DNA from: a bacterium
GTDB taxonomy: Bacteria > Actinomycetota > Acidimicrobiia > Spongiisociales > JAENVV01
DNA: 64,000 bases
NCBI GenBank assembly: GCA_024641305.1
Contig: JAHEDI010000009.1
Coordinates: 32,174-96,173 of the forward strand
Direction: 5' to 3'
A program made the translations under genes and the position numbers. Below, in pieces: positions 9,182 to 56,207 of the stretch. Numbering within the stretch: position 1 is the first letter of the stretch; each line of letters opens with the position of its first letter. Under the pieces are notes generated by a model. It was not told the DNA's origin, ran no database searches, and was given only the letters and a program-made list of their open reading frames with translations.

Positions 9182-9295
9182 GGTTTCTCCCATCCGATTC
9201 GGAGCCTTGGTTTCGCCGACACTACCGAATGAACAGGACCGTGACCTCGGGTCCGTCGTCAGTTTGCGGACCAGCCATCGCTAGCCTGAATTGCC

Positions 9296-11263
9296 ATGCT
9301 TACTGACTATTCGCACCTCACGCCATCTGCGACCATCGAAATCGCCGACGTTGCCATCTCTACAGCGAACCATCTCATTGACACGGTCGTTTCGGAAACC
9401 TCAGAACGAACCTACGCCAACACCCTCGCACCCCTCGATCAGGCTCTCAACCTCGTCCGCGATGCCGATGGGGTCAGTGCCTTCATGGCGCGAATCCATC
9501 CTGACGAGTCGGTTCGGGGCGCTGGTTCCGAGGCGGACGAAACAATCCAGAAGTGGTTATCCAACCTCGCATTTAACCACGACCTGTACGAAGCGGTTCG
9601 GGATTATTCGCAGAGCGCGGCCGCTTTGGAACTCGACGGCGAATGGGAAAGGAACCTCGACTTCTGGCTCCGGGACTTCCGGCGGGCCGGCCAGGAACTC
9701 GCACCCAAAGACCGCGAAAAGCTCCAGGCTCTCCGAAATGACCTCATCGAACTGCACGTCGCCTACGAGCGGAACCTGGATGAGTGGGACGACGGACTCG
9801 AGGTTTCTCGAGACGACCTTGGCGGCATGTCCGAGCCCTACCTTGCACGCCTGGCCCCCGGGTCAGCCGAAGGAACGTACCGGGTCACCGTTTCCTATCC
9901 CGATTACGTCCCCCTGATGGAGCAATGTACAAATCGGGATCTTCGACAGAAAATGCAGTTCAAATTCATGAACCGAGCAGCCGACGCCAATCTGCCGTTG
10001 CTCAACAGGGCCGTCCAGGTGCGGTGGGATATTGCCCACCTGCTCGGCTACGAGACGTTCGTCGACCTGGCTCTTGAGCCAAAGATGGCCGACCCTGACT
10101 CTCTGGCTGCCTTCTATGACTCTTTGATACCCGGACTGTTAGCTCTCGGTCAGGATGAGCTGAACGTTCTCACCGGCCTCATGAGTTCCGAGTACCCCGA
10201 TCAGATGCTCATGCCTTGGGACTGGACCTTCTATGACGCCAGACAAGCCGAACTCGACTTCGGTGTCGACAACAACCTGGTCAGTGAGTACTTCGCCCTC
10301 GGGGCGACAGTTCAAGGCATGCTCGACATCTGCGCAGAAGTGTTCGGTATCGAATTCGCGCCGATCGAAGAAACCAAAGCCTGGGACGACGACGTTCTTC
10401 TGTTCGAGATTCGCAACGCAGGCGAAGAGGCAGCGATCGCCTACTTCTACGCCGACCTGCATCCCCGTCCCGGAAAGTACGGTCATGCGGCGTGTTGGCG
10501 TCTGCGGGCGGGTTGTCTCGCTACAGACGGAACCTATCGGTTGCCTGTCTCGGCAATTGCCTGCAACTTCACCAAGCCCACCGCTGATAGCCCTTCGCTC
10601 CTTCAGCACAGCGAAGTCGAGACGCTATTCCACGAGTTCGGTCACGTTCTTCACAACACGCTCACCGAGACCAAACTTCCCCGTTTTTCGGGCACCCAGA
10701 CGGAACGTGATTTCGTCGAGGCACCGTCTCAGATCATGGAGAACTGGACCTGGGAGCCGACCGTGCTCAGCCGATTTGCCCGCCACTATCGGACCGGCGA
10801 GCTGATTCCTGAAGAGCTGCTGGCGAGCCTGGTCGAGGCCAGAAACCAGAACATTGCGTTGAAGACGCTCCGACAAGTTTTCTTTGGTCAATACGACCTG
10901 GCGTTACACGGCGGGGCGGCTCCGACGGACGCCGCCGAGGCCTACTGGGATAACATCGGCCTGACCGTCGTTCCCGGACATCCCGGAACCCATTTCGGAG
11001 CGAGCTTCGGACACATGATGTCCGACGGCTACGCCGCCGGCTACTACGGCTACCTGTGGTCGAAGATTTACGGCGACGATATGTTCTCCGTGTTCGTAGA
11101 CCAGGGAGTTCTCAATCCGGGCGTTGGCCGGCGGTATCGCAACACCATCCTGGCTCAGGGCGGTACAAAAGACGGGACGGAGCTGCTGGTCGAATTCCTC
11201 GGGAGGCCGCCTTCATCACAAGCGTTCATGGCCAAACTTGGTTTGAAAGAAACCTTGCCCTAA
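9296..11263 (+). CDS. M3 family Zn oligopeptidase (thimet oligopeptidase/oligopeptidase A-like)
   Basis: FHEFGH zinc motif, RDFVEAPSQIMENW, DLHPRPGKYGHA, YAAGYYGYLWS. Confidence 0.93.
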   Translation: MLTDYSHLTPSATIEIADVAISTANHLIDTVVSETSERTYANTLAPLDQALNLVRDADGVSAFMARIHPDESVRGAGSEADETIQKWLSNLAFNHDLYEAVRDYSQSAAALELDGEWERNLDFWLRDFRRAGQELAPKDREKLQALRNDLIELHVAYERNLDEWDDGLEVSRDDLGGMSEPYLARLAPGSAEGTYRVTVSYPDYVPLMEQCTNRDLRQKMQFKFMNRAADANLPLLNRAVQVRWDIAHLLGYETFVDLALEPKMADPDSLAAFYDSLIPGLLALGQDELNVLTGLMSSEYPDQMLMPWDWTFYDARQAELDFGVDNNLVSEYFALGATVQGMLDICAEVFGIEFAPIEETKAWDDDVLLFEIRNAGEEAAIAYFYADLHPRPGKYGHAACWRLRAGCLATDGTYRLPVSAIACNFTKPTADSPSLLQHSEVETLFHEFGHVLHNTLTETKLPRFSGTQTERDFVEAPSQIMENWTWEPTVLSRFARHYRTGELIPEELLASLVEARNQNIALKTLRQVFFGQYDLALHGGAAPTDAAEAYWDNIGLTVVPGHPGTHFGASFGHMMSDGYAAGYYGYLWSKIYGDDMFSVFVDQGVLNPGVGRRYRNTILAQGGTKDGTELLVEFLGRPPSSQAFMAKLGLKETLP

Positions 11264-11351
11264 CCCAGAACTTAACTCTCCGTTCAGTGTCAGTATTTGT
11301 GGTCACTCCAGTGAGGGGTGACTTCGCGTGCCTTCACCAGGAGAGACCCAC

Positions 11352-12194
11352 ATGTCCGATCCCGATATCAAGGTCCTGTCGACACCGGATCCCTTTCCAG
11401 CAACGGTATCCGAAACACCCAGCCAGCCGCGAGTTCTTCGTCGGTTCGTCAGGCGGGTCTGGCGTCTTATAAAGATTTTTCTGGTCCTCGCCTTCCTCAC
11501 CGGAATCGGCCTCGCCATCTACTACGGCTGGCCAATCGTGCAAGACCGGTATCTCAACCCGATCGCTGCGAATTCAGCAGCTGCTCAAACGGCGGCCGAA
11601 CGTCTTGACTCGGCAGACGCCCGCCTCACCGAGTTGGAAACGCAGGTCGCCACCCTGAACGACTCTGAAGCAGGCATGCCCGAGCGTCTCGCCGCCATCG
11701 AGTCGGCCCAGCAGGACTTTGACGCTCGGGTCGGATCGTTGACCACCCAGATATCGGACCACAGCGCTCGCCTGGACGACCTTGACACCATCCAGGGCGA
11801 ACTGTCGACAGGTCTTGAAACCGCCAACGCCGAGACAGTTCGCCAGGTCGATCTATTACGGTCGATGGAGTTGCTGTCACGGGCACGCCTGTTCCTCTTC
11901 CAGGCCAACTATGGGCTGGCAAAAGCCGATGTACAGACCGCCCGTGTCATCCTTGATGGCATCCAGAAGGGCTATCCCGAATGGGAGCCGGCAGTCGTCG
12001 CCGAGGTCTTGTTCCGGGTCGACAAAACGCTGGGGGCTCTGCCTCTACTGCCGGTACCGGCCTCCAACGATCTCGACATCGCTTGGCAAGTCTTGCTTAC
12101 CCAGGTCGTAATGGGCCCGCCGCCGGTCGATTTGACGCCATCAACAGATGTCCCAACCAGCACTACGACCACGACAGTGGGTACGGGCGGCTAG
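11352..12194 (+). CDS. Membrane-anchored coiled-coil protein of unknown function
   Basis: Basic patch plus one TM helix (IFLVLAFLTGIGLAIYYGW), long heptad region, helical C-domain and Thr-rich tail. GGAG RBS before the ATG at 11352. Confidence 0.75.
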   Translation: MSDPDIKVLSTPDPFPATVSETPSQPRVLRRFVRRVWRLIKIFLVLAFLTGIGLAIYYGWPIVQDRYLNPIAANSAAAQTAAERLDSADARLTELETQVATLNDSEAGMPERLAAIESAQQDFDARVGSLTTQISDHSARLDDLDTIQGELSTGLETANAETVRQVDLLRSMELLSRARLFLFQANYGLAKADVQTARVILDGIQKGYPEWEPAVVAEVLFRVDKTLGALPLLPVPASNDLDIAWQVLLTQVVMGPPPVDLTPSTDVPTSTTTTTVGTGG

Positions 12195-40612: not shown

Positions 40613-42207
40613 TGAACAACGGCAACCCCATAGGAGAGTCGACTGACGAGGCCCTGGTCCTTGAGTTGAGCGGCGTGTCCCGACAGTTCGGGGCCGTTCG
40701 AGCACTGAGCAATGTCAGTTTCGACTGCCGGCCCGGAGAAGTTCACGCCCTCGTTGGCGAGAACGGCTCAGGCAAGTCGACCCTCCTCGGGGTTGCCAGC
40801 GGGTTCGTCGACCCCGATCTGGGCAAAGTCCAGATCGGGGGCAGAACCCTCCGCCGAGATTCTCCTGCGCTGGCTCGCAAACTTGGCCTGGCGATGGCCT
40901 ATCAAGACACCTCGTTGATCCAGGCCGAACCGGTCAAGAACAACCTGTTCCTTGCAGCTCCACCAGGAAAACGGCCGCCCTACTGGAGACGTAAGAAATG
41001 GGCGCGCAGACTGCTGGGCGAGTTCGACCTCGACATGGAACTCTTTCCTGATTCGCCGGCCGGCTTCCTTACGTTGGCCGAACGACAGTTGTTCGAGGTG
41101 GCCAAAGCACTCGTATCGGACCCCAAAGTGATTCTTCTCGACGAACCAACAACGGCCCTCGGGCCTGATGAGGTGGATTCTCTCCATCGGACTATTGCAC
41201 GATGCCGCGATCAAGGAATCGGCGTCGTCTATGTAAGCCACCGACTGCCTGAAGTCCTTGAGATTGCCGACCGGATCACCGTATTGCGAGATGGCGAGAC
41301 GCAAGGCACGTTTGATGCCAGGACCACCACCGAACATGAGTTGGTCGACCTGATTGTCGGTCGGCCTTTCGAGGCGGCTTTCCCACAGCCGTCTGTAGCC
41401 GTACATGAGCAAAAAGACGTCCTGGTTGTCGAAGCTTTGCAGGGCCAGTCGTTCGGACCAGTCAGCTTCACCCTTGAGAGCGGAGAGGTTGTTGGGATTG
41501 CAGGAGCCGAAGGCAACGGACAACCACAACTGTTCGACACCTTGTCAGGCAGAACCCCACCGCGTGCCGGCCGGGTCACCGTTGATGGTAGGGATCTGAC
41601 CTTGATCTCAACGCACGAAGCAATCGAAGCAGGGATCATGCTGCTGCCCGGCGACCGCAAAAACGAGGCCCTTATGACGGTGCTCGGCGTCAGAGTGAAT
41701 GCCACTGTTCAGTCAATTCGCCAATTCAGGCGGCTCTTCTTCCTTCGCCGGCGAGCCGAACGCCGAGCGGTTGGCAAACTCGTTGAGGAGCTCGAAATCC
41801 GCACACCCTCTCTCGAACAGCCGGTCGAGTTTCTCTCCGGAGGCAATCAGCAGAAGGTCGCCGTGTCACGTACATTTCTCAAGAAACCTTCAGTCATCCT
41901 TGCTTACGAGCCCACCCAAGGGGTCGATGTCGGCTCCCGTTTCGACATCTATAAGGCACTGAGGGCGCGCACCAATGATGGGGCCGTGCTTCTGGTCAAG
42001 TCGAGCGACCCGCTCGAGCTCGCCGGGTTGTGCGATCGTGTGCTGGTGTTGTCTCGCGGCCAGATCATTGAAGAAATCCCGGGCGACGAACTCGATGAGG
42101 TCCGGATCGTCGAGGCCATCGTCCGCGGCCCAGGCTTGTCCAGATCCGGGCAATCGTCATTAGGCGTCGCGATGCCGAAGGCCCCTACCCACTCTGATGC
42201 GCCATGA
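40612..42207 (+). CDS. CUT2 (RbsA-like) ABC ATP-binding protein with two NBDs
   Basis: GENGSGKST, LLDEPTT, YVSHRLPEV, LSGGNQQKV and SSDPLEL. Confidence 0.92.
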   Translation: MNNGNPIGESTDEALVLELSGVSRQFGAVRALSNVSFDCRPGEVHALVGENGSGKSTLLGVASGFVDPDLGKVQIGGRTLRRDSPALARKLGLAMAYQDTSLIQAEPVKNNLFLAAPPGKRPPYWRRKKWARRLLGEFDLDMELFPDSPAGFLTLAERQLFEVAKALVSDPKVILLDEPTTALGPDEVDSLHRTIARCRDQGIGVVYVSHRLPEVLEIADRITVLRDGETQGTFDARTTTEHELVDLIVGRPFEAAFPQPSVAVHEQKDVLVVEALQGQSFGPVSFTLESGEVVGIAGAEGNGQPQLFDTLSGRTPPRAGRVTVDGRDLTLISTHEAIEAGIMLLPGDRKNEALMTVLGVRVNATVQSIRQFRRLFFLRRRAERRAVGKLVEELEIRTPSLEQPVEFLSGGNQQKVAVSRTFLKKPSVILAYEPTQGVDVGSRFDIYKALRARTNDGAVLLVKSSDPLELAGLCDRVLVLSRGQIIEEIPGDELDEVRIVEAIVRGPGLSRSGQSSLGVAMPKAPTHSDAP

Positions 42208-44675
42208 CAAGCCAGTACCAACCAACTGGACCAATAGAGGCGGCCCGGCAAGCGGTCCGAAAGGTTGTGCGCAACGCACGTGACAAGAACAAGTGGCGCA
42301 AGGTCGTCAAGGTCCGCCTGTGGATGCCCATTGCGCTCCAGCTCTTGCTGATCGGTGCGCTGCTCTGGTACACGAGTTCCCGTTTCGACGGGTTCCTCAA
42401 CGGCACGAACGTCACCAATGTCCTCGTGATCGCGATTCCACTGGCGATAGCGGCCATGGCCCAGACGCACGCTCTACTCGTTGGCTACCTGGACCTTTCG
42501 GTTGGGGCCATGATCAGCCTGGGTGTTGTCGTCGCCTCATACCTCATCGTGCCCAACTCGTCTCCGACACAAATCATGATCGGAGTCGGGGCGATACTCC
42601 TGATCGGCGTCGTCGTGGGCCTCGTCAACGCCGGTCTGGTTCGGGGAGTGAGGATCCCATCGATCATCGCCACCCTGGCCACGTTGAGCATCCTCGATGG
42701 CATCTCGTTGACGTTGCGAGAGACACCGAGTGGCACCATTAATCCAGGCTTCGTCTCGGGCCTCAAATCGAGTGCCGGATCGGTTCCGATCGCTTTCATC
42801 GCGGTGGTGGTTGTCGCCATCCTGCTCGACTATTGGCTTCACGCAACCGGCTCGGGCCTGAAAGTAAGAGCCACTGGATTCGACGAACGTTCCGCAAAAC
42901 GCAGCGGCGTCCAAACCAACTGGACGCGGGTGCGTGCCCTGCTGCTCTCGGCAGTATTCGCCGCGATTGCCTCATTCTTCGTAATGTCCCGATCTCCCAT
43001 CGGAAACGCACAGATCGGCTCTAGCTTCGCGCTCAACAGCATCACCGCGGCAGTTCTCGGCGGCGCATCTCTGGCGGGCGGACGAGCCACATATGTCGGA
43101 GGGCTCATTGCCTCAGTGCTCCTGGCCCTCATCATCACCGTGCTTCCTTTCTTGGGTCTGACGCCGGATCACGGTTTGATGATTATCGGTGTACTGGTGC
43201 TGCTCGGGATCATTCTGTTCCAGGTGGGCGACATCAAGGAGTTGGTCAAGAGGAATTTCAGACGGGCGCGTCGTTTGGCCTTAGGAAGCAATCTCGTCGC
43301 CGACACAGAGTTACCGACGTTGTACCCATCGGGAATCGATTTCAGCATCGTCTCTACGGGACGAAAGCTGATCAAGGGCGGGACGGTGCTCTCTCTTGAT
43401 CCGACCATCGGTGATTTGAGCAACGGAGATGTTCTCATCGAAGGCGACAAAATCGTCGAGGTTGGCAGAAACCTTGTCGCCGGGGATGCCGAGATCGTCG
43501 ACGCCTCGGGGATGATCGTCATGCCAGGGTTCGTGGACAGTCACCGTCACATTTGGGAAGGCGTTCTGCGCAACATCGGGACCGACGTACCACTTGAAGG
43601 CAGAGTCAGCTACATCTCGTTCATCCTCCGGACACTGGCTCCGGCCTATCGACCTCAAGATGTCTACGCAGGCAACATGGTGTCAGCAGTCGGCGCCATC
43701 GATGCCGGTATCACGACCCTCCTCGACTGGTCCCACATCCAGAGTTCTCCCGCTCATACCGACGCAGCAGTCCAGGCACTTCAAGATTCCGGACTGAGAG
43801 CTGTATTCGCTTACGGGTTCCCATGGTGGGGCAAGTGGGAGGAACGTCAACCGAGCTGGTTCGTGCGCGCCGCCAACGAGTATTTCTCTTCACAGGATCA
43901 ACTGCTCACGCTTGCCCTGGCTGCTCCCGGACCCGAATTCACGGATTTCGAGGTGGCGAGAGATCACTGGAAGCTAGCCAGGGAATCAAGCGCGAGACTG
44001 ACCGCTCATGTTGGCGTCGGGAGTTACGGCCAGGACGCCAAGGTCCAGGAAATGGGAGAAGCCGGGCTACTTGGACCCGACACCACATACATACATTGCA
44101 CCACCCTGAACGACACTGAGATCCAAATGATCGTCGACAGCGGCGGCACCGTGTCACTGGCGTCACCGGTGGAGATGATGATGGGACACGGCATGCCCCC
44201 GATCCAGAAGTTCCTTGACCGCGGACTGAAACCCAGTCTGAGCATTGATGTCGAGACCAACGTACCTTCGGACATGTTCAACCAGATGCGCTCAGTTTTG
44301 GCCCTCCAGCGAACCCTGGCCATCGCCCAGGACCGAGACCCTCTTGCGGCTCGTGAGATCCTCAGCTGGGCGACGATGGAAGGCGCCAAGGCCAACGGCT
44401 TGGACTCAAAGGTCGGCAGTCTCAGTCCGGGGAAGCAAGCAGACATCATTATGTTGCGTACCGACCGGATGAACGTGACTCCGCTCAACGATCCGGCAAC
44501 CGCGGTCGTATTGGGTATGGACACGGGAAACGTCGATACCGTCCTGGTTGCCGGCCGCGTCATGAAACAAGGCGGAAGGCTGCTGCATGTCGACTGGAGT
44601 GCGGTGCGGCAAATGGTCCTCGAATCTCGTGACTACCTGATCGACAAATCGGGCTTCAAGCTTCCCAAGATCTAG
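42204..44675 (+). CDS. Fusion: CUT2 ABC permease (aa 1-345) + metal-dependent amidohydrolase (aa ~386-823)
   Basis: One uninterrupted 823-aa ORF. Permease motifs YLDLSVG and ITAAVLGGASLAGG; amidohydrolase motifs VMPGFVDSHRH, TAH, YIHC, SIDVE and GSLSPGKQADI. Confidence 0.88.
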   Translation: MTSQYQPTGPIEAARQAVRKVVRNARDKNKWRKVVKVRLWMPIALQLLLIGALLWYTSSRFDGFLNGTNVTNVLVIAIPLAIAAMAQTHALLVGYLDLSVGAMISLGVVVASYLIVPNSSPTQIMIGVGAILLIGVVVGLVNAGLVRGVRIPSIIATLATLSILDGISLTLRETPSGTINPGFVSGLKSSAGSVPIAFIAVVVVAILLDYWLHATGSGLKVRATGFDERSAKRSGVQTNWTRVRALLLSAVFAAIASFFVMSRSPIGNAQIGSSFALNSITAAVLGGASLAGGRATYVGGLIASVLLALIITVLPFLGLTPDHGLMIIGVLVLLGIILFQVGDIKELVKRNFRRARRLALGSNLVADTELPTLYPSGIDFSIVSTGRKLIKGGTVLSLDPTIGDLSNGDVLIEGDKIVEVGRNLVAGDAEIVDASGMIVMPGFVDSHRHIWEGVLRNIGTDVPLEGRVSYISFILRTLAPAYRPQDVYAGNMVSAVGAIDAGITTLLDWSHIQSSPAHTDAAVQALQDSGLRAVFAYGFPWWGKWEERQPSWFVRAANEYFSSQDQLLTLALAAPGPEFTDFEVARDHWKLARESSARLTAHVGVGSYGQDAKVQEMGEAGLLGPDTTYIHCTTLNDTEIQMIVDSGGTVSLASPVEMMMGHGMPPIQKFLDRGLKPSLSIDVETNVPSDMFNQMRSVLALQRTLAIAQDRDPLAAREILSWATMEGAKANGLDSKVGSLSPGKQADIIMLRTDRMNVTPLNDPATAVVLGMDTGNVDTVLVAGRVMKQGGRLLHVDWSAVRQMVLESRDYLIDKSGFKLPKI

Positions 44676-45523: not shown

Positions 45524-46102
45524 GTGACCGAAGATCTTGACGCCCTCGTAGCTGGAGTCGTTCAACGCGACAACCAGGCTTTCAGCCAGCTGTACGACCT
45601 GCTGGCCGATTCGCTCGCGGCTTTTGCCTTCCGGCTCGTACGAGACCGGCAGGCCGCCGAGGACGCCGTCCAACAGGCATTCATCGAACTGGCCAACGCC
45701 GCCCCCGGTTTCACGGGCGACGGTCGGAGTCTGCAAGCGTGGTTGTACAAGAGTGTTCGATTCAGCTGCCTAGACGAGTTCCGTCGCCGATCACGCCGGC
45801 CCGAAGTACCAACCGAAACGGTTCCCGAGGTTCCATTTGTCGGGTCGGACGCCGAACCCTATTCCGCCGAGCTCGCCAGCGCGATAGGCAGCCTCCCCTA
45901 CCGCCAGCAGCTCCTTCTCGATCTTCGCCATGTCCACCAGCTTTCCGGGTATGAGATGGCCGAGGTTCTTGGGATGACAAGACCGGCCGCGTACGCAGCA
46001 CTCGGCCGGGCCGAGAAGAACCTCAGAAAAGCATTCACTGATGCCGTCGAATCCATGAACCAGATGGCGTCTCTATCAGTGAAAGACGGAGAACATACGT
46101 GA
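45524..46102 (+). CDS. ECF RNA polymerase sigma-70 factor
   Basis: AFSQLYD, AAEDAVQQAF, LQAWLYK...LDEFRRR (region 2); LPYRQQ...YEMAEVLG...LGRAEKNLRK (region 4). Confidence 0.92.
   Translation: MTEDLDALVAGVVQRDNQAFSQLYDLLADSLAAFAFRLVRDRQAAEDAVQQAFIELANAAPGFTGDGRSLQAWLYKSVRFSCLDEFRRRSRRPEVPTETVPEVPFVGSDAEPYSAELASAIGSLPYRQQLLLDLRHVHQLSGYEMAEVLGMTRPAAYAALGRAEKNLRKAFTDAVESMNQMASLSVKDGEHT
46045..46072 (+). promoter_or_regulatory. ECF-type promoter copy 2, inside the sigma gene 3' end
   Basis: CGTCGAATC-CATGAACCAGATG-GCGTCT, ending 26 nt before the anti-sigma GTG at 46099. Confidence 0.65.
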
Positions 46103-46866
46103 TCGACCCAATTGAACTGCTCAGCAGGCAAGTCCCTGCCATCTCGATTGGCGCCGAAACGCGTTCACGCCATCTTTCGCGAATTCACGCTTCGCTAGTC
46201 GCCCCCGTCGCGGGTCCTCCCGCTTCTCTATTCGACCTCCATCCGATCACAACGTCAATCGTCAACAGGTTCCGCTCGTTCGATTGGCGACAAAGGCTCA
46301 CTGCTGGCCTGGTTGCTTTCATGGTGGCAATTCCTTCAGCGGCAGTGGCCACAGAAGGCAGCCAGCCCGATACGTGGTTGTATCCGGTCAAGCTGGCTGT
46401 CGAACCGATCTGGCTCCTGGTTGACGACGAAATCGTGGCTCAGCACCGAATCGAAGAGTTGCGGCTGGCCCTGCGTGATGACCTGCCAACGGACGCCCTA
46501 CTCTCCAGAGCCGATGAGGCGGTTAACCGACTCGATCCTGACTCGATTTGGCGTGATGAGTTTGCCCTGATCGAACGCACGGTCAAGGAACGGGCCGCCG
46601 ATGTTGAAACGACGACAGACACCGAATCCAAGGCTGTGATCGATTCCCCGGTGGTCGACGAGTCCGCTGGAGCGGAGAGCTCCCCGAAGGTCGATGAGGC
46701 CACGGAGCCTGCCGGGGATGCCAACCACTCTCCAGAATCAAGCGAGATTTCCGACCCGGACGACAATGGGTCCTCGCACGACTCGGACGATTCGGACCAC
46801 GACTCGGACGACGAAACACACAGCTCAGACGATTCCCACGACGACGACCACGAGGGCGACTCATGA
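46099..46866 (+). CDS. Putative anti-sigma factor, DUF5667-like, with Asp/Ser/His-rich tail
   Basis: GTGA overlap with sigma; N-terminal helix, TM/signal segment, SQPDTWLYPVKLAVE...HRIEE pattern, acidic His-containing tail. Confidence 0.72.
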   Translation: MIDPIELLSRQVPAISIGAETRSRHLSRIHASLVAPVAGPPASLFDLHPITTSIVNRFRSFDWRQRLTAGLVAFMVAIPSAAVATEGSQPDTWLYPVKLAVEPIWLLVDDEIVAQHRIEELRLALRDDLPTDALLSRADEAVNRLDPDSIWRDEFALIERTVKERAADVETTTDTESKAVIDSPVVDESAGAESSPKVDEATEPAGDANHSPESSEISDPDDNGSSHDSDDSDHDSDDETHSSDDSHDDDHEGDS

Positions 46867-51197: not shown

Positions 51198-51650
51198 TCA
51201 GTCCCGGGCCGTGACGGCGACGCCGCCAGCCCTGGTTGTGGCATGGATGCGCAGGCGCGGTGCGTCTTCTGGCAGCTCTTCGCTCGGCGTCACGTCGATA
51301 TCAACGCCGCCCATCTGAGCATCCGTCTCGACATCGACTGCCCAGCCTCCCGGCACAAAGACGCGTACCCCACCCAGTGCGGCGGTAAGTTCGAGATCAG
51401 CACCCATCGGATCGACACTGGCATCGCGCAGGTCGACTTCCAAGCCGCCCAGGGCAGCCACAGCCGATCCCGACTTCAGCGCAGTTGCAATACTGTGGAA
51501 CCGCTTCCCACCGAAGATGGCGGCGATCCGGAAGTCATTGGTGCCTTCATTGCCGGTTGTCATCTTCCGTGAGGCCAGGTGGCCAACTGCGAACGCGAAA
51601 GCTTCAACCACGGTTATCCATAGAAAGATCCGCCCAAGTTTTCTGACCAT
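51198..51650 (-). CDS. LiaF/DUF2154-like cell-envelope stress protein
   Basis: N-terminal TM, AIFGG, AALGGLEVDLRDA, ALGGVRVFVPGGWAV, QMGGVD. Confidence 0.75.
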   Translation of the reverse strand: MVRKLGRIFLWITVVEAFAFAVGHLASRKMTTGNEGTNDFRIAAIFGGKRFHSIATALKSGSAVAALGGLEVDLRDASVDPMGADLELTAALGGVRVFVPGGWAVDVETDAQMGGVDIDVTPSEELPEDAPRLRIHATTRAGGVAVTARD

Positions 51651-52141
51651 ACCAGTCCTTTCTGGATGGAGCACAAAACCTAGTCCGGCGCGAAGCGTGA
51701 ATCGCCTGCTTGTTCATAGTCATCAAGCTGAAACGGGTAGTTGATCGCACCTGTCGACGATCCGACGTTCACAACACCCGGTCACCGACCCCAAGGCGGC
51801 TTCCCACGATATGGCTTTCCACGGCGTCGACGTATGGATGCCACGGTGACAAGAGACGAAACAGATCCAGCGACGGTTGCAGTCGCCGTGGCGACGGGGT
51901 CGGCCGGTTCGGCTATCGCTCCGATCATGGAAGCGGCGGACCACGACGATCGGCGTCGAATGCAGATCCAGAGTTCGTTAGCGACCAGCTTTCGCCGGTG
52001 ACCTAGAACCGATCAGCGGTGAACCCTCTATTCGCCCCTTCTGACACCACGGAAACCAAACTAGGGACGAATTGCCCACCGACCTCTGGTCATTCGCCAG
52101 GGATCCGTAAGGGCCTTTCTGGCATAACGTTGCTAGCGGCA

Positions 52142-52160: not shown

Positions 52161-52183
52161 GCCGCCCGCAAGCTGGAGTGCAT

Positions 52184-53380
52184 GTGGATACAGACCGAAA
52201 CATCGATTCGGATCTGAATGTAGCTACCTTCGATCGTCCGGATGGACCACGCTGGGCCGCCAGACGTTCGTCGGTCCGGAGGCTGACGGCGGGTGCTTTT
52301 GCCTTGATTGCCTGCACCGCGTTGCTGATGCTTGCTTTCGATCCGGGCGGAGTTGCGTCTGCTCAGGATGATGCTCGTTTCAACAACGACACCTGCCTGA
52401 GCTGTCACGATGTTCCGAGTCTTGAAGTACCACTTCCGTCCGGCGAAACCCTGAACGCGACGGTTGACTCGGACACCTACGCCGCATCGGTACATGGCCA
52501 ATTGGAACTTCCGTGCGTCCTCTGCCACACCGACATCGACGGATACCCGCACCCCGAAGTTGTGGCTGAAACATTGCGAGATTTCGCAGTCGAACGGTAC
52601 ACCTCATGTTTCGGCTGCCATCAAGATCAATACTCAGCGACCGTCGACAACGTTCACGCTCGAGCGCGCGCCGAAGGTAACTCGGCAGCTGCGGTTTGTA
52701 CCGACTGTCACGGCGCACACGACGTCGCCCGCCCGAGTCACAATGACGTCGACATCACCCAAACTTGCCGGTCGTGCCATTCCGAGGTCTACGACCTGTA
52801 CGCCGGCAGCGTTCATGGAGCGGCATTGACCGACGGCAACACAGACGTGCCGACGTGTACCGACTGCCACGGTGTCCACGATTCTCAGGGGCCCACCGAC
52901 ACCAACTTCCATCTCTTTTCCCCTCAACTCTGTGCCGACTGCCACGCCGACCAGGAACTGATGGGCAAGTACGGCATCAGTACGGATGTTTTCGATACGT
53001 ACGTGTCCGACTTCCACGGCTCAACAGTTGTTCTTTTCGAGGAACTGGCCCCTGATCAAGAGACCAACAAACCCGTGTGCGTCGACTGCCACGGCGTTCA
53101 CCACATCACGGCTCCAACCGACCCGGAGAGCTCGGTCTTCAAGGAAAACATCCTGAGCACCTGCCAGCGTTGTCACCCCGACGCCACGACAAACTTCCCG
53201 GCCGCCTGGCTCAGTCACTATCAGCCGAGCCCCGGCAAGACCACCCTCGTATTTGTGGTTCGACTTTTCTACCGGATCCTGATCCCGGTGGTCATCGGGG
53301 CCATGCTCGTTTACATCATCTTCGATCTGGCCCGGCGAGGTCGATTCCACCGTAAGGCCGAACGTGTCCAGCACAGCTGA
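52184..53380 (+). CDS. Nonaheme cytochrome c with C-terminal membrane anchor (CbcL c-domain-like)
   Basis: Nine CxxCH motifs: CLSCH, CVLCH, CFGCH, CTDCH, CRSCH, CTDCH, CADCH, CVDCH, CQRCH. N-terminal signal/TM and C-terminal TM. GGAG before the GTG at 52184 (ORF open to 52019). Confidence 0.9.
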   Translation: MDTDRNIDSDLNVATFDRPDGPRWAARRSSVRRLTAGAFALIACTALLMLAFDPGGVASAQDDARFNNDTCLSCHDVPSLEVPLPSGETLNATVDSDTYAASVHGQLELPCVLCHTDIDGYPHPEVVAETLRDFAVERYTSCFGCHQDQYSATVDNVHARARAEGNSAAAVCTDCHGAHDVARPSHNDVDITQTCRSCHSEVYDLYAGSVHGAALTDGNTDVPTCTDCHGVHDSQGPTDTNFHLFSPQLCADCHADQELMGKYGISTDVFDTYVSDFHGSTVVLFEELAPDQETNKPVCVDCHGVHHITAPTDPESSVFKENILSTCQRCHPDATTNFPAAWLSHYQPSPGKTTLVFVVRLFYRILIPVVIGAMLVYIIFDLARRGRFHRKAERVQHS

Positions 53381-54560
53381 ATCCACCAGCATCCTGCGTT
53401 TTACGGTTTCGGACCGTCTTGAACACATCGCCCAAATAACCACTTTTGTCCCCCTCGCCGTCACCGGACTGGTGCAGCGCTACGCAGGTAGCGGACTCTC
53501 GCAGGGGATCATCACCCTCTTCGGCGGCATCGAAAGCGTACGAATTATCCACCGGGTATTCGCGGCAATCCTGATGGTGGCGGTCGTCTACCACCTGGGA
53601 GCCATCGGATACCGGCGATTCGTACTGAATATTCCCCGCAGCATGGGTCCATCCCTGGCCGACTTGCGAGCCGCCGGCCAGACACTCGCCTACAACCTCA
53701 GGAGGCGCGACTCTCGTCCGCCGCAGGGTCGGTACACATTCGAGGAGAAGATCGAGTATTGGTCCCTGGTGTGGGGTACGGTCCTCATGGTCGCGACAGG
53801 ATTCCTTCTATGGAACCCGATCGCCGGCGCAAAGATACTCCCTGGCTCCTTCATCCCCGCAGCCCGAGCCGCCCATGGCGGGGAAGCAGTGCTGGCTATT
53901 CTGGCCATTCTGGTCTGGCACTTCTACCACGTGCATCTCAAACATTTCAACAAGAGCATCTTCACCGGATACATGACGCTCGAAGAAATGGAGTCCGAGC
54001 ACCCCCTCGCTTTGACCATGGAAGTGGCGGACCCGCCGTCACAGGACGAACTCCGCCACCGGCGCAACAGGTATGTCCCGCTCTACAGTTTGGGAGCGTT
54101 CGTTCTGCTCATCGGAATCTGGCTCTTTGTCAGCTTCGAGGACACCGCCATCACCACCATCGAACCGCTGGAAAGCCCGGCGGTCTACGCTCCGATCCCC
54201 ACCACGACCATGCCGCTCGCCACTACCACGACCATGGCCACCACCGGGTCGACGCTGCCCAGCACAACGACAACTGTGATCGTGATCGCCGAAGATCTCA
54301 CCTGGGCCTCTATCGGCCCGATCTTCGAGGCGAAATGCCTCATGTGCCACGGCGCGACGAACCAAACTGCCGGCTTGAGCCTCGCCACCTTCAATGACAC
54401 CATTGCCGGAGGAAACGACGGACCCGGTGTCGTCCCTGGCGACCCCGGGACTTCGATGATCGTGACGATCCAGGAGGCCGGCGGACATCCCGGCCAACTC
54501 GACGCCAACGAAATCGCCAACCTACGCGCCTGGATCGACGCGGGCGCCCCGGAAAAGTGA
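53364..54560 (+). CDS. FdnI/HydC-type diheme cytochrome b + extra TM + Pro/Thr linker + monoheme cytochrome c (PSCyt-like)
   Basis: RFTVSDRLEH, IIHR, YTFEEKIEYW, AHGGEAVLAILAILVWHFYHVH (b-heme His); CLMCH at 54336-54350; PGDPGTS...EIANLRAWIDAGA. Confidence 0.88.
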   Translation: MSSTAESTSILRFTVSDRLEHIAQITTFVPLAVTGLVQRYAGSGLSQGIITLFGGIESVRIIHRVFAAILMVAVVYHLGAIGYRRFVLNIPRSMGPSLADLRAAGQTLAYNLRRRDSRPPQGRYTFEEKIEYWSLVWGTVLMVATGFLLWNPIAGAKILPGSFIPAARAAHGGEAVLAILAILVWHFYHVHLKHFNKSIFTGYMTLEEMESEHPLALTMEVADPPSQDELRHRRNRYVPLYSLGAFVLLIGIWLFVSFEDTAITTIEPLESPAVYAPIPTTTMPLATTTTMATTGSTLPSTTTTVIVIAEDLTWASIGPIFEAKCLMCHGATNQTAGLSLATFNDTIAGGNDGPGVVPGDPGTSMIVTIQEAGGHPGQLDANEIANLRAWIDAGAPEK

Positions 54561-54647
54561 CATCGGCATGAACCCTCCCCTCCCATCACCATCCCGATCG
54601 GGCCGGTGTGCTCTAGCAGGCCGCTGCCCCGCTCCCTACCGTCAGGA

Positions 54648-56207
54648 ATGAACATGGAGCAAGAACCCGACCGCGGCGGAGAACCCCCTTCAGGAGTACT
54701 TCGAGAGACACGGACTCTGTATCAGCATCCTCTGGCAGCCGTCGGTGGCGCTCTCATTGTTGGTGGAGTCCTCGGCTTCATCGTGCTTTTCTTCTTCGAC
54801 TTCTTCTCACCGGGCGAGAACCCCTACCGGTCGCTGGTCACATTCATCGCCATTCCCGCGATAATCATTCTCGGAGTCTTGATATTCCTCATCTCGATCC
54901 GCATACAGGTCGTGCGGGCCCGACGACGCGGCGAACATGTCCGGTTCTTGCTACGCATCGAACCATCCGACCCCCGTTACATGCGCAACCTATGGCTCTT
55001 CCTCGGCTTGAGCGCCTTGTTCGTCACGCTCGCCGCATTCAGCGGCTTCAAAGCCTATGAGACCACCGACTCGGTGGCCTTCTGTGGGAGCGCCTGCCAC
55101 GACGTCATGGGTCCCCAAGACGTCACATACCTTAACGGTCCACATGCCCGGGTTCTCTGCGTGGACTGTCACATCGGTCCGGGTGGTTCTTTCTGGGTCA
55201 AGTCGAAAATCGACGGAATCCGACAGGTCCTGGCCGTGGCCACCGACAGCTATGACCGGCCGATCCACACTCCGGTCACGAGCCTCCGACCTGCCCAGGA
55301 AACCTGCGAGGGCTGCCACTGGCCGCAGCAGTTTCTCGGCCAGAAACTGATCACGAAGAATTACTTCCGGACCGACGAGAATAATTCACCTTGGACCATC
55401 AGCCTGCTAATGAACATCGGCGGCGGGAATCCGCGTACCGGGCGCCTGGAGGGAATCCACTGGCACATGCTCAGTGAGCAGAAAGTCGAGTACATCGCCA
55501 CAGATGAGCAACGCCAGGATATCGCCTGGGTCCGGGTAACCGATGCATCCGGCCAGGATGTGGCGGTCTTTTCGGACCCGAACGTCGACATCCCCGACCC
55601 GGAGGCCGAAACGACCGAAGTCCGCACCTTCGACTGCATGGACTGTCACAACCGACCCAGTCATGACTTCCTACCCCCGGCCACAGCCATGAACCTGGAA
55701 TTGTCCAAAGGCACCATCTCAACCGATTTACCGTTCATCCGCAAGGTTGGCCTGGATCTTCTGAATGCCCCCTACGAAACCAGCGCCGAAGCGAAAGCGG
55801 CGATAACCAGCGGCCTCCGTAACTTCTATCTAACCCAGTACAACAGCAAGTATGAAGTGCTGCGGGCCGATATCGACCAGACAGAGAAAGTGCTACACGA
55901 CATCTACGAGGCCAACTTCTTTCCGGAGATGAAAACGGACTACCGGGCCAGGGAGAACGATCTGAGCCACTTCGTGAGCCAGGGTTGTTTCCGCTGTCAC
56001 TTCTCGGACCTTGAGACCGAAACAGGTAGGAAGATCTCGAGCTCTTGCACTTCCTGCCACACCATCGTGGCCCAGGGACCAGCCGACAACGTCGCCGACC
56101 TGCCAAGCGATATCGGAGGTTTGGAGTTCGAACACCCCGTCGAGATTGGCGACGTATGGAAAACCGTGCGCTGTACCCAATGCCACTCGCCGGCCTCGGG
56201 TTACTAA
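54648..56207 (+). CDS. imcH: ImcH-like heptaheme inner-membrane cytochrome c (NapC/NirT-related N-domain)
   Basis: Three TM helices; CGSACH (CX3CH) plus CVDCH, CEGCH, CMDCH, CFRCH, CTSCH, CTQCH. PHARV, LRPAQETC..CHWP, GIHWH, CHNRPSH, NFFPEM and HPVEIG match Geobacter ImcH as recalled. Confidence 0.85.
   Translation: MNMEQEPDRGGEPPSGVLRETRTLYQHPLAAVGGALIVGGVLGFIVLFFFDFFSPGENPYRSLVTFIAIPAIIILGVLIFLISIRIQVVRARRRGEHVRFLLRIEPSDPRYMRNLWLFLGLSALFVTLAAFSGFKAYETTDSVAFCGSACHDVMGPQDVTYLNGPHARVLCVDCHIGPGGSFWVKSKIDGIRQVLAVATDSYDRPIHTPVTSLRPAQETCEGCHWPQQFLGQKLITKNYFRTDENNSPWTISLLMNIGGGNPRTGRLEGIHWHMLSEQKVEYIATDEQRQDIAWVRVTDASGQDVAVFSDPNVDIPDPEAETTEVRTFDCMDCHNRPSHDFLPPATAMNLELSKGTISTDLPFIRKVGLDLLNAPYETSAEAKAAITSGLRNFYLTQYNSKYEVLRADIDQTEKVLHDIYEANFFPEMKTDYRARENDLSHFVSQGCFRCHFSDLETETGRKISSSCTSCHTIVAQGPADNVADLPSDIGGLEFEHPVEIGDVWKTVRCTQCHSPASGY

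Follow-up and report, generated by a model that had tools for sequence, protein, structure and literature searches.

A three-gene cluster of ImcH-type and split CbcL-type cytochromes in a probable member of the Acidimicrobiia

Why would a bacterium whose other genes look like those of a generalist heterotroph devote 4 kb of DNA to 17 heme c attachment motifs? We analyzed 64 kb of contig JAHEDI010000009.1, from a sediment metagenome (hereafter the window, numbered from its first nucleotide), in which three co-oriented open reading frames (ORF1, ORF2, and ORF3) make up such a cluster. Independent gene calls on identical metagenome contigs map all three to the + strand, give products of 398, 398, and 517 amino acids (aa), and agree with the GTG start of ORF1 at 52184. 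The CXXCH motifs number nine in ORF1, one in ORF2, and six in ORF3, which has a CX3CH besides, and so the gene calls and the motif counts confirm the 9+1+7 arrangement in a preliminary description of this stretch. Because a six-frame scan of the 64 kb found just one further CXXCH, in a 68-aa ORF, 17 motifs within 4 kb are not a product of chance. We think it quite probable that the products are two quinol:cytochrome c oxidoreductases, both membrane-bound and both from known families. The families are not new; what is new here is the lineage, the split architecture of one of the two enzymes, and a variable cytochrome c tail.

An ImcH-family protein and a split CbcL-type cytochrome

By the published description, an ImcH homolog is 495-519 aa long, begins with three helices, and has an atypical CX3CH motif beside the membrane domain as well as six CX2CH motifs (Zhong & Shi, PMC6295460). 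ORF3 agrees in size, in topology, and in its motifs. It is 517 aa long, as compared to 507 aa for ImcH of Geobacter sulfurreducens (GSU3259), and in both proteins a CX3CH first heme lies by helix 3 and six CXXCH follow. The motifs of ORF3 are at residues 144 (CGSACH) and 169, 218, 328, 445, 465, and 507 (CXXCH), and hydropathy places its helices at 30-48, 64-82, and 113-131; the motifs of GSU3259 are at 132, 156, 205, 311, 428, 448, and 486 and its helices are at 13-35, 45-67, and 100-122 (PMC6295460 Table S3). The spacing from motif to motif is 25,49,110,117,20,42 in ORF3, 24,49,106,117,20,38 in GSU3259, and 24,49,110,117,20,42 in the homolog from Melioribacter roseus. In other words, the third and sixth spacings of ORF3 exceed those of GSU3259 by 4 residues, as they do in the homologs from Melioribacter, Ignavibacteria, and Caldithrix.

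The residues around the quinol site fit as well. In Geobacter ImcH, heme 1 is ligated by His137 and Gln179, residues E127, K173, and Y188 are conserved, and the other hemes are bis-His (Pimenta et al., bioRxiv 10.1101/2023.05.03.539133). K173, Q179, and Y188 correspond to K185, Q191, and Y200 of ORF3, with equal gaps of 6 and 9 residues, and Glu127 corresponds to Asp139. We scored conservation in the best 120 of over 6,000 homologs of ORF3. The CX3CH motif, K185, and Q191 are invariant, position 200 is Y or F, and position 139 is always D or E. Six further histidines fit the distal ligands of hemes 2-7; five of these are invariant and the sixth, H271, is His in 116 of the 120. The distal glutamine, the lysine, the tyrosine, the acidic residue, and the bis-His hemes are thus all accounted for.

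Homologs of ORF3 are still about 60% identical in metagenome-assembled genomes (MAGs) labeled Zixibacteria, Acidobacteria, Ignavibacteriales, and Acidimicrobiia. The lineages that hold ImcH according to a 2018 survey (Zixibacteria, Ignavibacteria, Caldithrix, and Acidobacteria; PMC6295460) reach 53-62% identity to ORF3, and the published identity between the Geobacter ImcH group and other phyla is just 31.5-49%. Judged from its sequence, then, ORF3 belongs to the ImcH family, and the preliminary description was right to call it ImcH-like: the helices, the CX3CH motif, the spacing, and the quinol-site residues all fit. Structure prediction had less to offer. The best Foldseek match of the AlphaFold2 model of ORF3 has E = 0.2, and the heme regions, which were modeled without cofactors, have predicted local distance difference test (pLDDT) scores below 50.

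We also noticed two further features of ORF3. Met152, three residues past the heme 1 His (CGSACHDVM; window 55083-55109, aa 144-152), is invariant in 43 aligned homologs and recalls the Met ligand of the CXXCHXM motif of NrfH. And an insert between hemes 3 and 4 (aa 229-307; window 55338-55574) is predicted, partly with good confidence, to be rich in beta sheet; this part of ImcH-type proteins has no match in PDB.

ORF1 and ORF2, whose genes overlap by 17 nt, are best understood together. CbcL of G. sulfurreducens (GSU0274) has nine heme c motifs and then six helices, so that heme c comes before cytochrome b. The same order is found here if the two proteins are read as one: the helices add up to six, one in ORF1 and five in ORF2, and only both proteins together have the architecture of CbcL. 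The concatenated proteins align end to end, and collinearly, with fused multiheme-plus-cytochrome-b proteins that are encoded beside ImcH-like genes in other phyla, and the two polypeptides part in the loop that joins helix 1 to helix 2. Fused proteins of the family type match ORF1 at 130-220 bits and ORF2 at 60-116 bits. The fused neighbors in related loci share the heme spacing of published family members (Table S2), for example the 19-heme Cabys_319 of Caldithrix.

The histidines agree with this reading. In the CbcL pattern, which is distinct from that of CbcB (Joshi et al.), helices 1-3 have one ligand each and helix 5 has two. Here, H345 of ORF1 precedes helix 1, and in ORF2 helix 2 has H21, helix 3 has H63, and helix 5 has both H171 and H186. 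H345 is conserved in fused CbcL-type proteins. Five histidines of ORF2 (H63, H77, H171, H186, and H213) do not vary in its best 120 homologs. Position 21 is a gap in some of the 121 rows, and in the 114 that have a residue there it is always His.

The cytochrome b part of ORF2 resembles FdnI, the cytochrome b556 subunit of formate dehydrogenase-N from E. coli (PDB entry 1KQF, chain C). Pfam matches it to Ni_hydr_CYTB (5e-14) and a sequence comparison matches it to 1kqf_C (4.6e-6), with H18, H57, and H155 of FdnI aligned to H21, H63, and H171; the fourth ligand of the two hemes b is one residue off. In the AlphaFold2 model of ORF2 (pLDDT 81.8), five long helices are followed by a linker that is disordered at residues 270-309 and by a confident C-terminal domain, and its only significant PDB match by Foldseek is again 1kqf_C (E = 8e-7, TM score 0.71). 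The two proteins are nevertheless just 21% identical, and ORF2 differs in having a fifth helix, a cytochrome c tail, and a multiheme cytochrome as its partner instead of FdnGH.

We write "split CbcL-type" rather than CbcL because members of the CbcL/MtoC/MtrH family are single fused polypeptides and here there are two genes. There are other differences. The spacing of the CXXCH motifs of ORF1 is 40,31,30,23,30,25,49,28, as compared to 23,25,23,24,29,28,43,28 and then a helix in GSU0274 (table in the 2018 survey), so the ends agree (49,28 or 43,28 before a helix) but the first six spacings do not. The helix itself lies about 35 residues past the last heme motif of ORF1, versus 28 in GSU0274. 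Also, GSU0274 ends at residue 619, just past its last helix, whereas ORF2 continues after helix 6 with a Thr-rich linker and a PSCyt1 domain. We considered whether the split was due to a sequencing frameshift and rejected this, as a split with overlapping stop and start recurs in independent Acidimicrobiia-type assemblies. Because it is kept in complete Acidimicrobiia-type loci, we take the split to be real. In sequence terms, ORF1 and ORF2 are a CbcL-type cytochrome in two pieces, and the "CbcL-like" of the preliminary description holds in this two-gene form.

Other two-gene cytochromes of this kind are known. CbcBA of Geobacter and the Cbc-like proteins of the Gram-positive Carboxydocella thermautotrophica also combine a separate diheme b protein with a single-helix multiheme c protein. 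On the other hand, CbcB is a four-helix protein that relies on CbcA for its fourth His and is reported to have no sequence homology to CbcL. ORF2 instead shows the pattern of CbcL and FdnI and ends in a cytochrome c tail. Carboxydocella, a Firmicute, encodes an ImcH homolog in the same genome, but at a different site from its two-gene Cbc-like clusters.

Could the two proteins instead be membrane anchors for enzymes that are encoded elsewhere, with ORF3 serving a nitrite reductase in the manner of NrfH and ORF2 a formate dehydrogenase in the manner of FdnI? We consider this very improbable. It is true that the best matches among curated hidden Markov models are to NrfH (TIGR03153; 3.8e-17, 62.6 bits) and to the gamma subunit of formate dehydrogenase (TIGR01583; 1.6e-11, 44.6 bits), and that NrfH (2j7a_C; E = 0.0018) and FdnI (1kqf_C) are the PDB matches of ORF3 and ORF2. 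Similarly, helix 3 and the first hemes of ORF3 match the N-terminal region of the NrfH (2J7A chain C)/NapC/NirT/CymA family, which Pfam also finds, again under the cut-off (NapC/NirT, 9.3e-7). But the scores are far under the curated cut-offs of 134.2 bits (TIGR03153) and 115.85 bits (TIGR01583). The architecture differs too: NrfH has one helix, four hemes, and CXXCHXM with an Asp, while ORF3 has three helices, seven hemes, and CX3CH with a distal Gln. And there is no dedicated reductase partner nearby, as neither the window nor the more than 80 related loci that we inspected contain a gene for NrfA (with its CXXCK) or FdnG/H. On these three grounds (cut-offs, architecture, and missing partner genes) we rejected the anchor reading. 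The preliminary description had likewise seen no molybdenum, NiFe, or NrfA catalytic subunit next to the cluster, and none is encoded among the flanking genes.

Table 1. Features of the cluster, in window coordinates.
Feature	Position	Strand	Basis
GGAG ribosome-binding site, 5 nt 5' of the ORF1 GTG start	52175..52178	+	read in sequence
ORF1, nonaheme cytochrome c, 398 aa	52184..53380	+	gene call; 9 CXXCH; Pfam Paired_CXXCH_1, Cytochrom_c3_2, Cytochrome_C7
ORF1 N-terminal signal or anchor helix, aa 34-52, then ASA/Q	52283..52339	+	Kyte-Doolittle scan
ORF1 C-terminal transmembrane helix, aa 365-383, equivalent to CbcL helix 1	53276..53332	+	hydropathy; alignment with fused proteins
ORF2, diheme cytochrome b with monoheme c tail, 398 aa	53364..54560	+	gene call; Pfam
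ORF2 diheme cytochrome b domain, aa 1-265: FdnI-type four-helix bundle and fifth helix	53364..54158	+	Pfam, PDB, model
ORF2 Thr/Pro-rich linker, predicted disordered	54159..54299	+	pLDDT <50 at residues 270-309
ORF2 C-terminal monoheme cytochrome c domain (PSCyt1; CLMCH)	54300..54560	+	Pfam PSCyt1 8e-8; pLDDT ~90
ORF3, ImcH-family heptaheme quinol dehydrogenase (predicted), 517 aa	54654..56207	+	gene call; motifs; homologs
ORF3 three N-terminal transmembrane helices	54729..55067	+	hydropathy; model helices 26-51, 57-91, 107-138
ORF3 atypical first heme motif CGSACH (CX3CH), directly after helix 3	55083..55100	+	invariant in best 120 homologs

The cytochrome c tail of ORF2

The preliminary description mentioned a monoheme extension on the cytochrome b. 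The extension is indeed present, but what had been missed is that it is a variable tandem module, with one to four copies in relatives named Actinomycetota and Chloroflexota. Among the best 120 of more than 1,300 homologs of ORF2, the copy number is one in 16, two in 55, three in 45, and four in 4, with a repeat period of about 100 residues. C325, C328, H329, and H375 of the tail are invariant in ORF2 homologs, and for H375 this suggests bis-His ligation. The tail is outside the cell, by topology and as heme c attachment requires. The tailed relatives that carry names are Actinomycetota, Acidimicrobiia, Anaerolineales, and Thermoflexales, while the fused CbcL-type proteins of diderm loci that we aligned have no tail. 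Pfam's Cytochrome_CBB3 and Cytochrom_C also match the tail region in relatives. The module is found on ImcH-type proteins too: in an Anaerolineales MAG (locus L088, 8053-9741), an ImcH-like protein carries its CX3CH at residue 54, a position suggestive of just one helix, and an additional CXXCH at its C terminus comes with a PSCyt1 match.

What might such a tail be for? One idea is that the Thr/Pro linker and its one to four, probably bis-His, c domains act as an electron relay that spans the cell wall, and that this relay evolved in lineages without an outer membrane (Actinomycetota and Chloroflexota) in place of the periplasmic cytochromes and porin-cytochrome conduits of diderms. Combined with ImcH and with two kinds of genes that are found near the cluster in relatives (a dedicated CcmF/CcmH lyase and an MtrC-like hexaheme), it would form an undescribed pathway of extracellular electron transfer in Acidimicrobiia. 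We think that this full scheme is doubtful. If it is true, then the pathway would sit in a group that is abundant in estuarine as well as marine sediments. On coasts, the share of Acidimicrobiia in the sediment community is a few percent, and about 4% in one study.

Gene neighborhoods in related loci

The preliminary description pointed to the presence of both routes in one cluster. This is no peculiarity of the organism. We examined 80 related loci around an ImcH-like gene and counted genes within 3.5 kb as neighbors. A CbcL-type cytochrome b gene is that close in 47 of the 80 loci and directly adjoins the ImcH-like gene in 35; if we restrict the count to loci that extend 4 kb or more in both directions, it is 29 of 48. 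The adjacency is widespread in diderm phyla. Fused forms, with 11-19 hemes, occur in loci from Pseudomonadales, Acidobacteriota, Zixibacteria, Ignavibacteriales, and Calditrichota, and in Pseudomonadales the fused gene lies alongside MtrA-like decahemes. The split cluster is kept in 13 Acidimicrobiia-type loci, in co-directional or convergent orientation. Published tags from Desulfuromonadaceae and Syntrophus MAGs show the adjacency as well: consecutive tags put ImcH and CbcL side by side in three Desulfuromonadales-related MAGs (A2X79_01185/01190, A2X96_02390/02395, and A2X92_08560/08565; tables of PMC6295460). Having both in one cluster is a common arrangement and is not special to the host.

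In G. sulfurreducens the two genes are apart, whereas here the ORF3 gene is linked to the CbcL-type pair in a host that is probably a monoderm actinomycetote. In the papers that we consulted, the adjacency is not remarked on. That it recurs across phyla suggests that ImcH and CbcL are functionally coupled in general, rather than being independent alternatives, which bears on the work in Geobacter.

Other genes recur near the cluster in relatives. The commonest extra neighbor is an MtrC/MtrF-like multiheme: a hexaheme of 350-370 aa with MtrC/MtrF-like domains occurs in at least nine distinct loci (at 13192-14247 in L090, for example), and decahemes of 730-760 aa occur in others. CcmF and CcmH adjoin the cluster in six loci of Actinomycetota or Acidimicrobiia type (L090, at 9186-11628, and L016, L012, L013, L017, and L009), and this System I pair may be a dedicated lyase for the CX3CH heme. 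In L090, genes for a TPR protein and a thioredoxin-like protein follow CcmF/CcmH. In three contigs from Acidimicrobiia MAGs (L004, L005, and L027), Pfam domains place the ImcH-like gene among menF, menD, menH, menA, menB, and menE (about 2900-14600 in L004), and an MtrC-like hexaheme adjoins it there. Finally, genes for a Rieske protein, a cytochrome b, and a petD-like subunit with 5-7 class I c domains adjoin the cluster in L008 (10511-13790), L010 (4452-8147), and L088 (4742-8034). A bc-type complex with so many monoheme domains is unusual in itself, and here it is seen both in Acidimicrobiia-type contigs (L008 and L010) and in an Anaerolineales contig (L088). None of these extras (CcmF/CcmH, the hexaheme, the men genes, or the Rieske complex) is in the 64-kb window.

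Host, electron flow, and the rest of the window

We scanned one genome per GTDB species for relatives of ORF3; the matches listed are all at 52% identity or more. Among the matches listed, those at 63-69% identity are mostly labeled Acidimicrobiia, Acidimicrobiaceae, Actinomycetes, or Actinomycetota; one is labeled simply "bacterium" and one "Gammaproteobacteria." The nearest relatives are thus MAGs from Acidimicrobiia and other Actinomycetota, in line with the host that had been proposed from the sequence. Relatives of ORF2 that carry names also include Actinomycetota and Acidimicrobiia, and an origin in the Acidimicrobiia is likely. A monoderm envelope is a general trait of Acidimicrobiia, and the host is likely to be Gram-positive. 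Two loci with other labels, L017 (Gammaproteobacteria) and L031 (Saprospiraceae), have the split cluster in its Acidimicrobiia-type form (60-64% identity), owing perhaps to binning errors or to horizontal transfer; L031 also has a 14-heme cytochrome.

In the library that we searched, we found no paper that combines ImcH or CbcL with Acidimicrobiia, nor any that describes this cluster in that lineage. The 2018 survey (PMC6295460) reported one atypical ImcH in Actinobacteria (from Intrasporangium, with one helix) and no CbcL-type protein. A lake study found CbcL homologs in Thermoleophilia; its authors remarked on the lack of genes for extracellular electron transfer in Actinobacteria and suspected that searches were biased against Gram-positives. 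Acidimicrobiia have been treated as aerobic heterotrophs or chemolithotrophs. The cluster of ImcH and split CbcL would provide a genetic handle for testing whether they respire metals, humics, or electrodes.

How might the two enzymes work? ORF3 would be anchored by its three helices and would oxidize menaquinol at the outer face of the membrane, beside the CX3CH heme 1, at a site formed by His149 with Gln191, with Lys185 and Tyr200 close by. Electrons would then pass through six bis-His hemes to an exposed last heme. In the other enzyme, the FdnI-like diheme b of ORF2 would take electrons from quinol and the membrane-anchored nonaheme ORF1 would carry them outward, perhaps with the c domain that is tethered at the outer end of the last helix of ORF2 as a further relay. 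In what is probably a monoderm member of the Acidimicrobiia, the pair would join the menaquinone pool to acceptors outside the cytoplasm, of which Fe(III), Mn(IV), humics, or other cells are the likeliest. Onward transfer would depend on cytochromes whose genes lie elsewhere in the genome. The division of labor in Geobacter, with ImcH for high-potential acceptors and CbcL for low-potential acceptors, is not transferable by homology.

Because of the roles of the characterized family members and the MtrC-like neighbors in relatives, we favor extracellular respiration as the most likely role, although we would give it slightly less than an even chance. The genes are also present in environmental RNA: contigs of 151-224 nt from an estuary metatranscriptome, mostly 92-99% identical, match ORF1, ORF2, and ORF3. 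Several observations weigh against this role or against the assignments beneath it. First, membership in the ImcH and CbcL families was judged only from homologs and from the published positions and residues of GSU3259 and GSU0274. Second, the taxonomy is indirect: GcvP, also encoded in the window, is undiscriminating, as its matches in Acidimicrobiales, Kribbella, Porticoccus, and Meiothermus are all at 63% identity. Third, the window has no surface multiheme cytochrome, no maturation genes, and no regulator linked to the cluster. Fourth, the RNA contigs come from close relatives rather than the source genome, and DNA carry-over is possible. Fifth, the Rieske/cytochrome b genes beside the cluster in L008, L010, and L088, as read from their sequences, point to an ordinary respiratory network more than to metal reduction.

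This last point leads to a different view of the cluster. Monoderm bacteria lack soluble periplasmic cytochromes c, and in them tethered c domains, such as the PSCyt1 tail, may simply link quinol dehydrogenases and Rieske/cytochrome b to terminal enzymes, either oxidases or reductases, whose acceptors are soluble (O2, nitrite, or N-oxides). The bc-type neighbors just mentioned, with their petD-like poly-c protein, favor this view, as do the class I-like character of the monoheme tail, with its Cytochrome_CBB3 and Cytochrom_C matches in relatives, and the generalist heterotroph genes of the rest of the window. We still find it unlikely. The characterized members of both families serve extracellular acceptors, MtrC/MtrF-like multihemes are the commonest extra neighbor in relatives, and an oxidase or reductase is adjacent in none of the loci that we inspected. 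Also, the invariant His375 suggests bis-His ligation, and not the His-Met ligation that is typical of oxidase donors.

Electrons could also flow the other way, so that the quinone pool is fed from outside by Fe(II), Mn(II), reduced humics, a cathode, or a partner cell. This has been proposed for MtoC with the monoheme MtoD in Gallionella, Sideroxydans, and Dechloromonas. The CbcL/MtoC/MtrH family is found in Fe(III) reducers and Fe(II) oxidizers alike, so that electrons may flow in either direction, and this counts, in turn, against respiration of extracellular acceptors. In Fe(II) oxidizers mtoC is clustered with mtoD, and here the b subunit itself carries a fused monoheme domain. Fe(II) oxidation is also known from some cultured Acidimicrobiia, for example Ferrimicrobium (PMC8350767). 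But ImcH homologs have so far been tied to reducers only, the window has no genes for carbon fixation or a Cyc2-like protein, and the heme spacing of ORF1 is an exact fit to neither MtoC nor Geobacter CbcL. Reverse flow therefore strikes us as improbable, and the favored role remains electron export by extracellular respiration.

The flanks of the cluster encode an acyl-CoA dehydrogenase, a short-chain dehydrogenase/reductase, a LiaF-like protein, a DapB-like protein, an amidohydrolase, HpcH, a CoA-transferase, and aldo-keto reductases, and no molybdopterin, NiFe, or NrfA-type gene adjoins the cluster. The rest of the window (GcvP, PEPCK, beta-oxidation enzymes, aminotransferases, ABC transporters, and regulators) is that of a generalist heterotroph, and it encodes no cytochrome c maturation protein, no reductase, and no oxidase. 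The window contains neither a tRNA nor an Rfam family, and a scan for promoters and terminators gave nothing informative. The GC content is uniform, with about 0.60 in the cluster as in the rest of the window. Because the flanking genes are syntenic with none of the related loci, neither vertical inheritance nor a mobile island is supported.

We also note a few other features of the window. An 823-aa ORF (42204-44675, +) combines a BPD_transp_2 permease (aa 70-334) with an amidohydrolase (aa 438-786), and is either a fusion or an over-long call. At 45524-46866 (+), about 5 kb upstream of the cluster, a putative sigma factor gene overlaps the gene downstream of it, whose product ends in a long acidic tail that is rich in Ser, Asp, and His (…DSDDSDHDSDDETHSSDDSHDDDHEGDS). 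The LiaF-like gene (51198-51674, -) encodes a small membrane protein whose C-terminal domain has a weak match to LiaF (7.7e-5, below the cut-off), and it is divergent from ORF1 across a 510-bp intergenic region.

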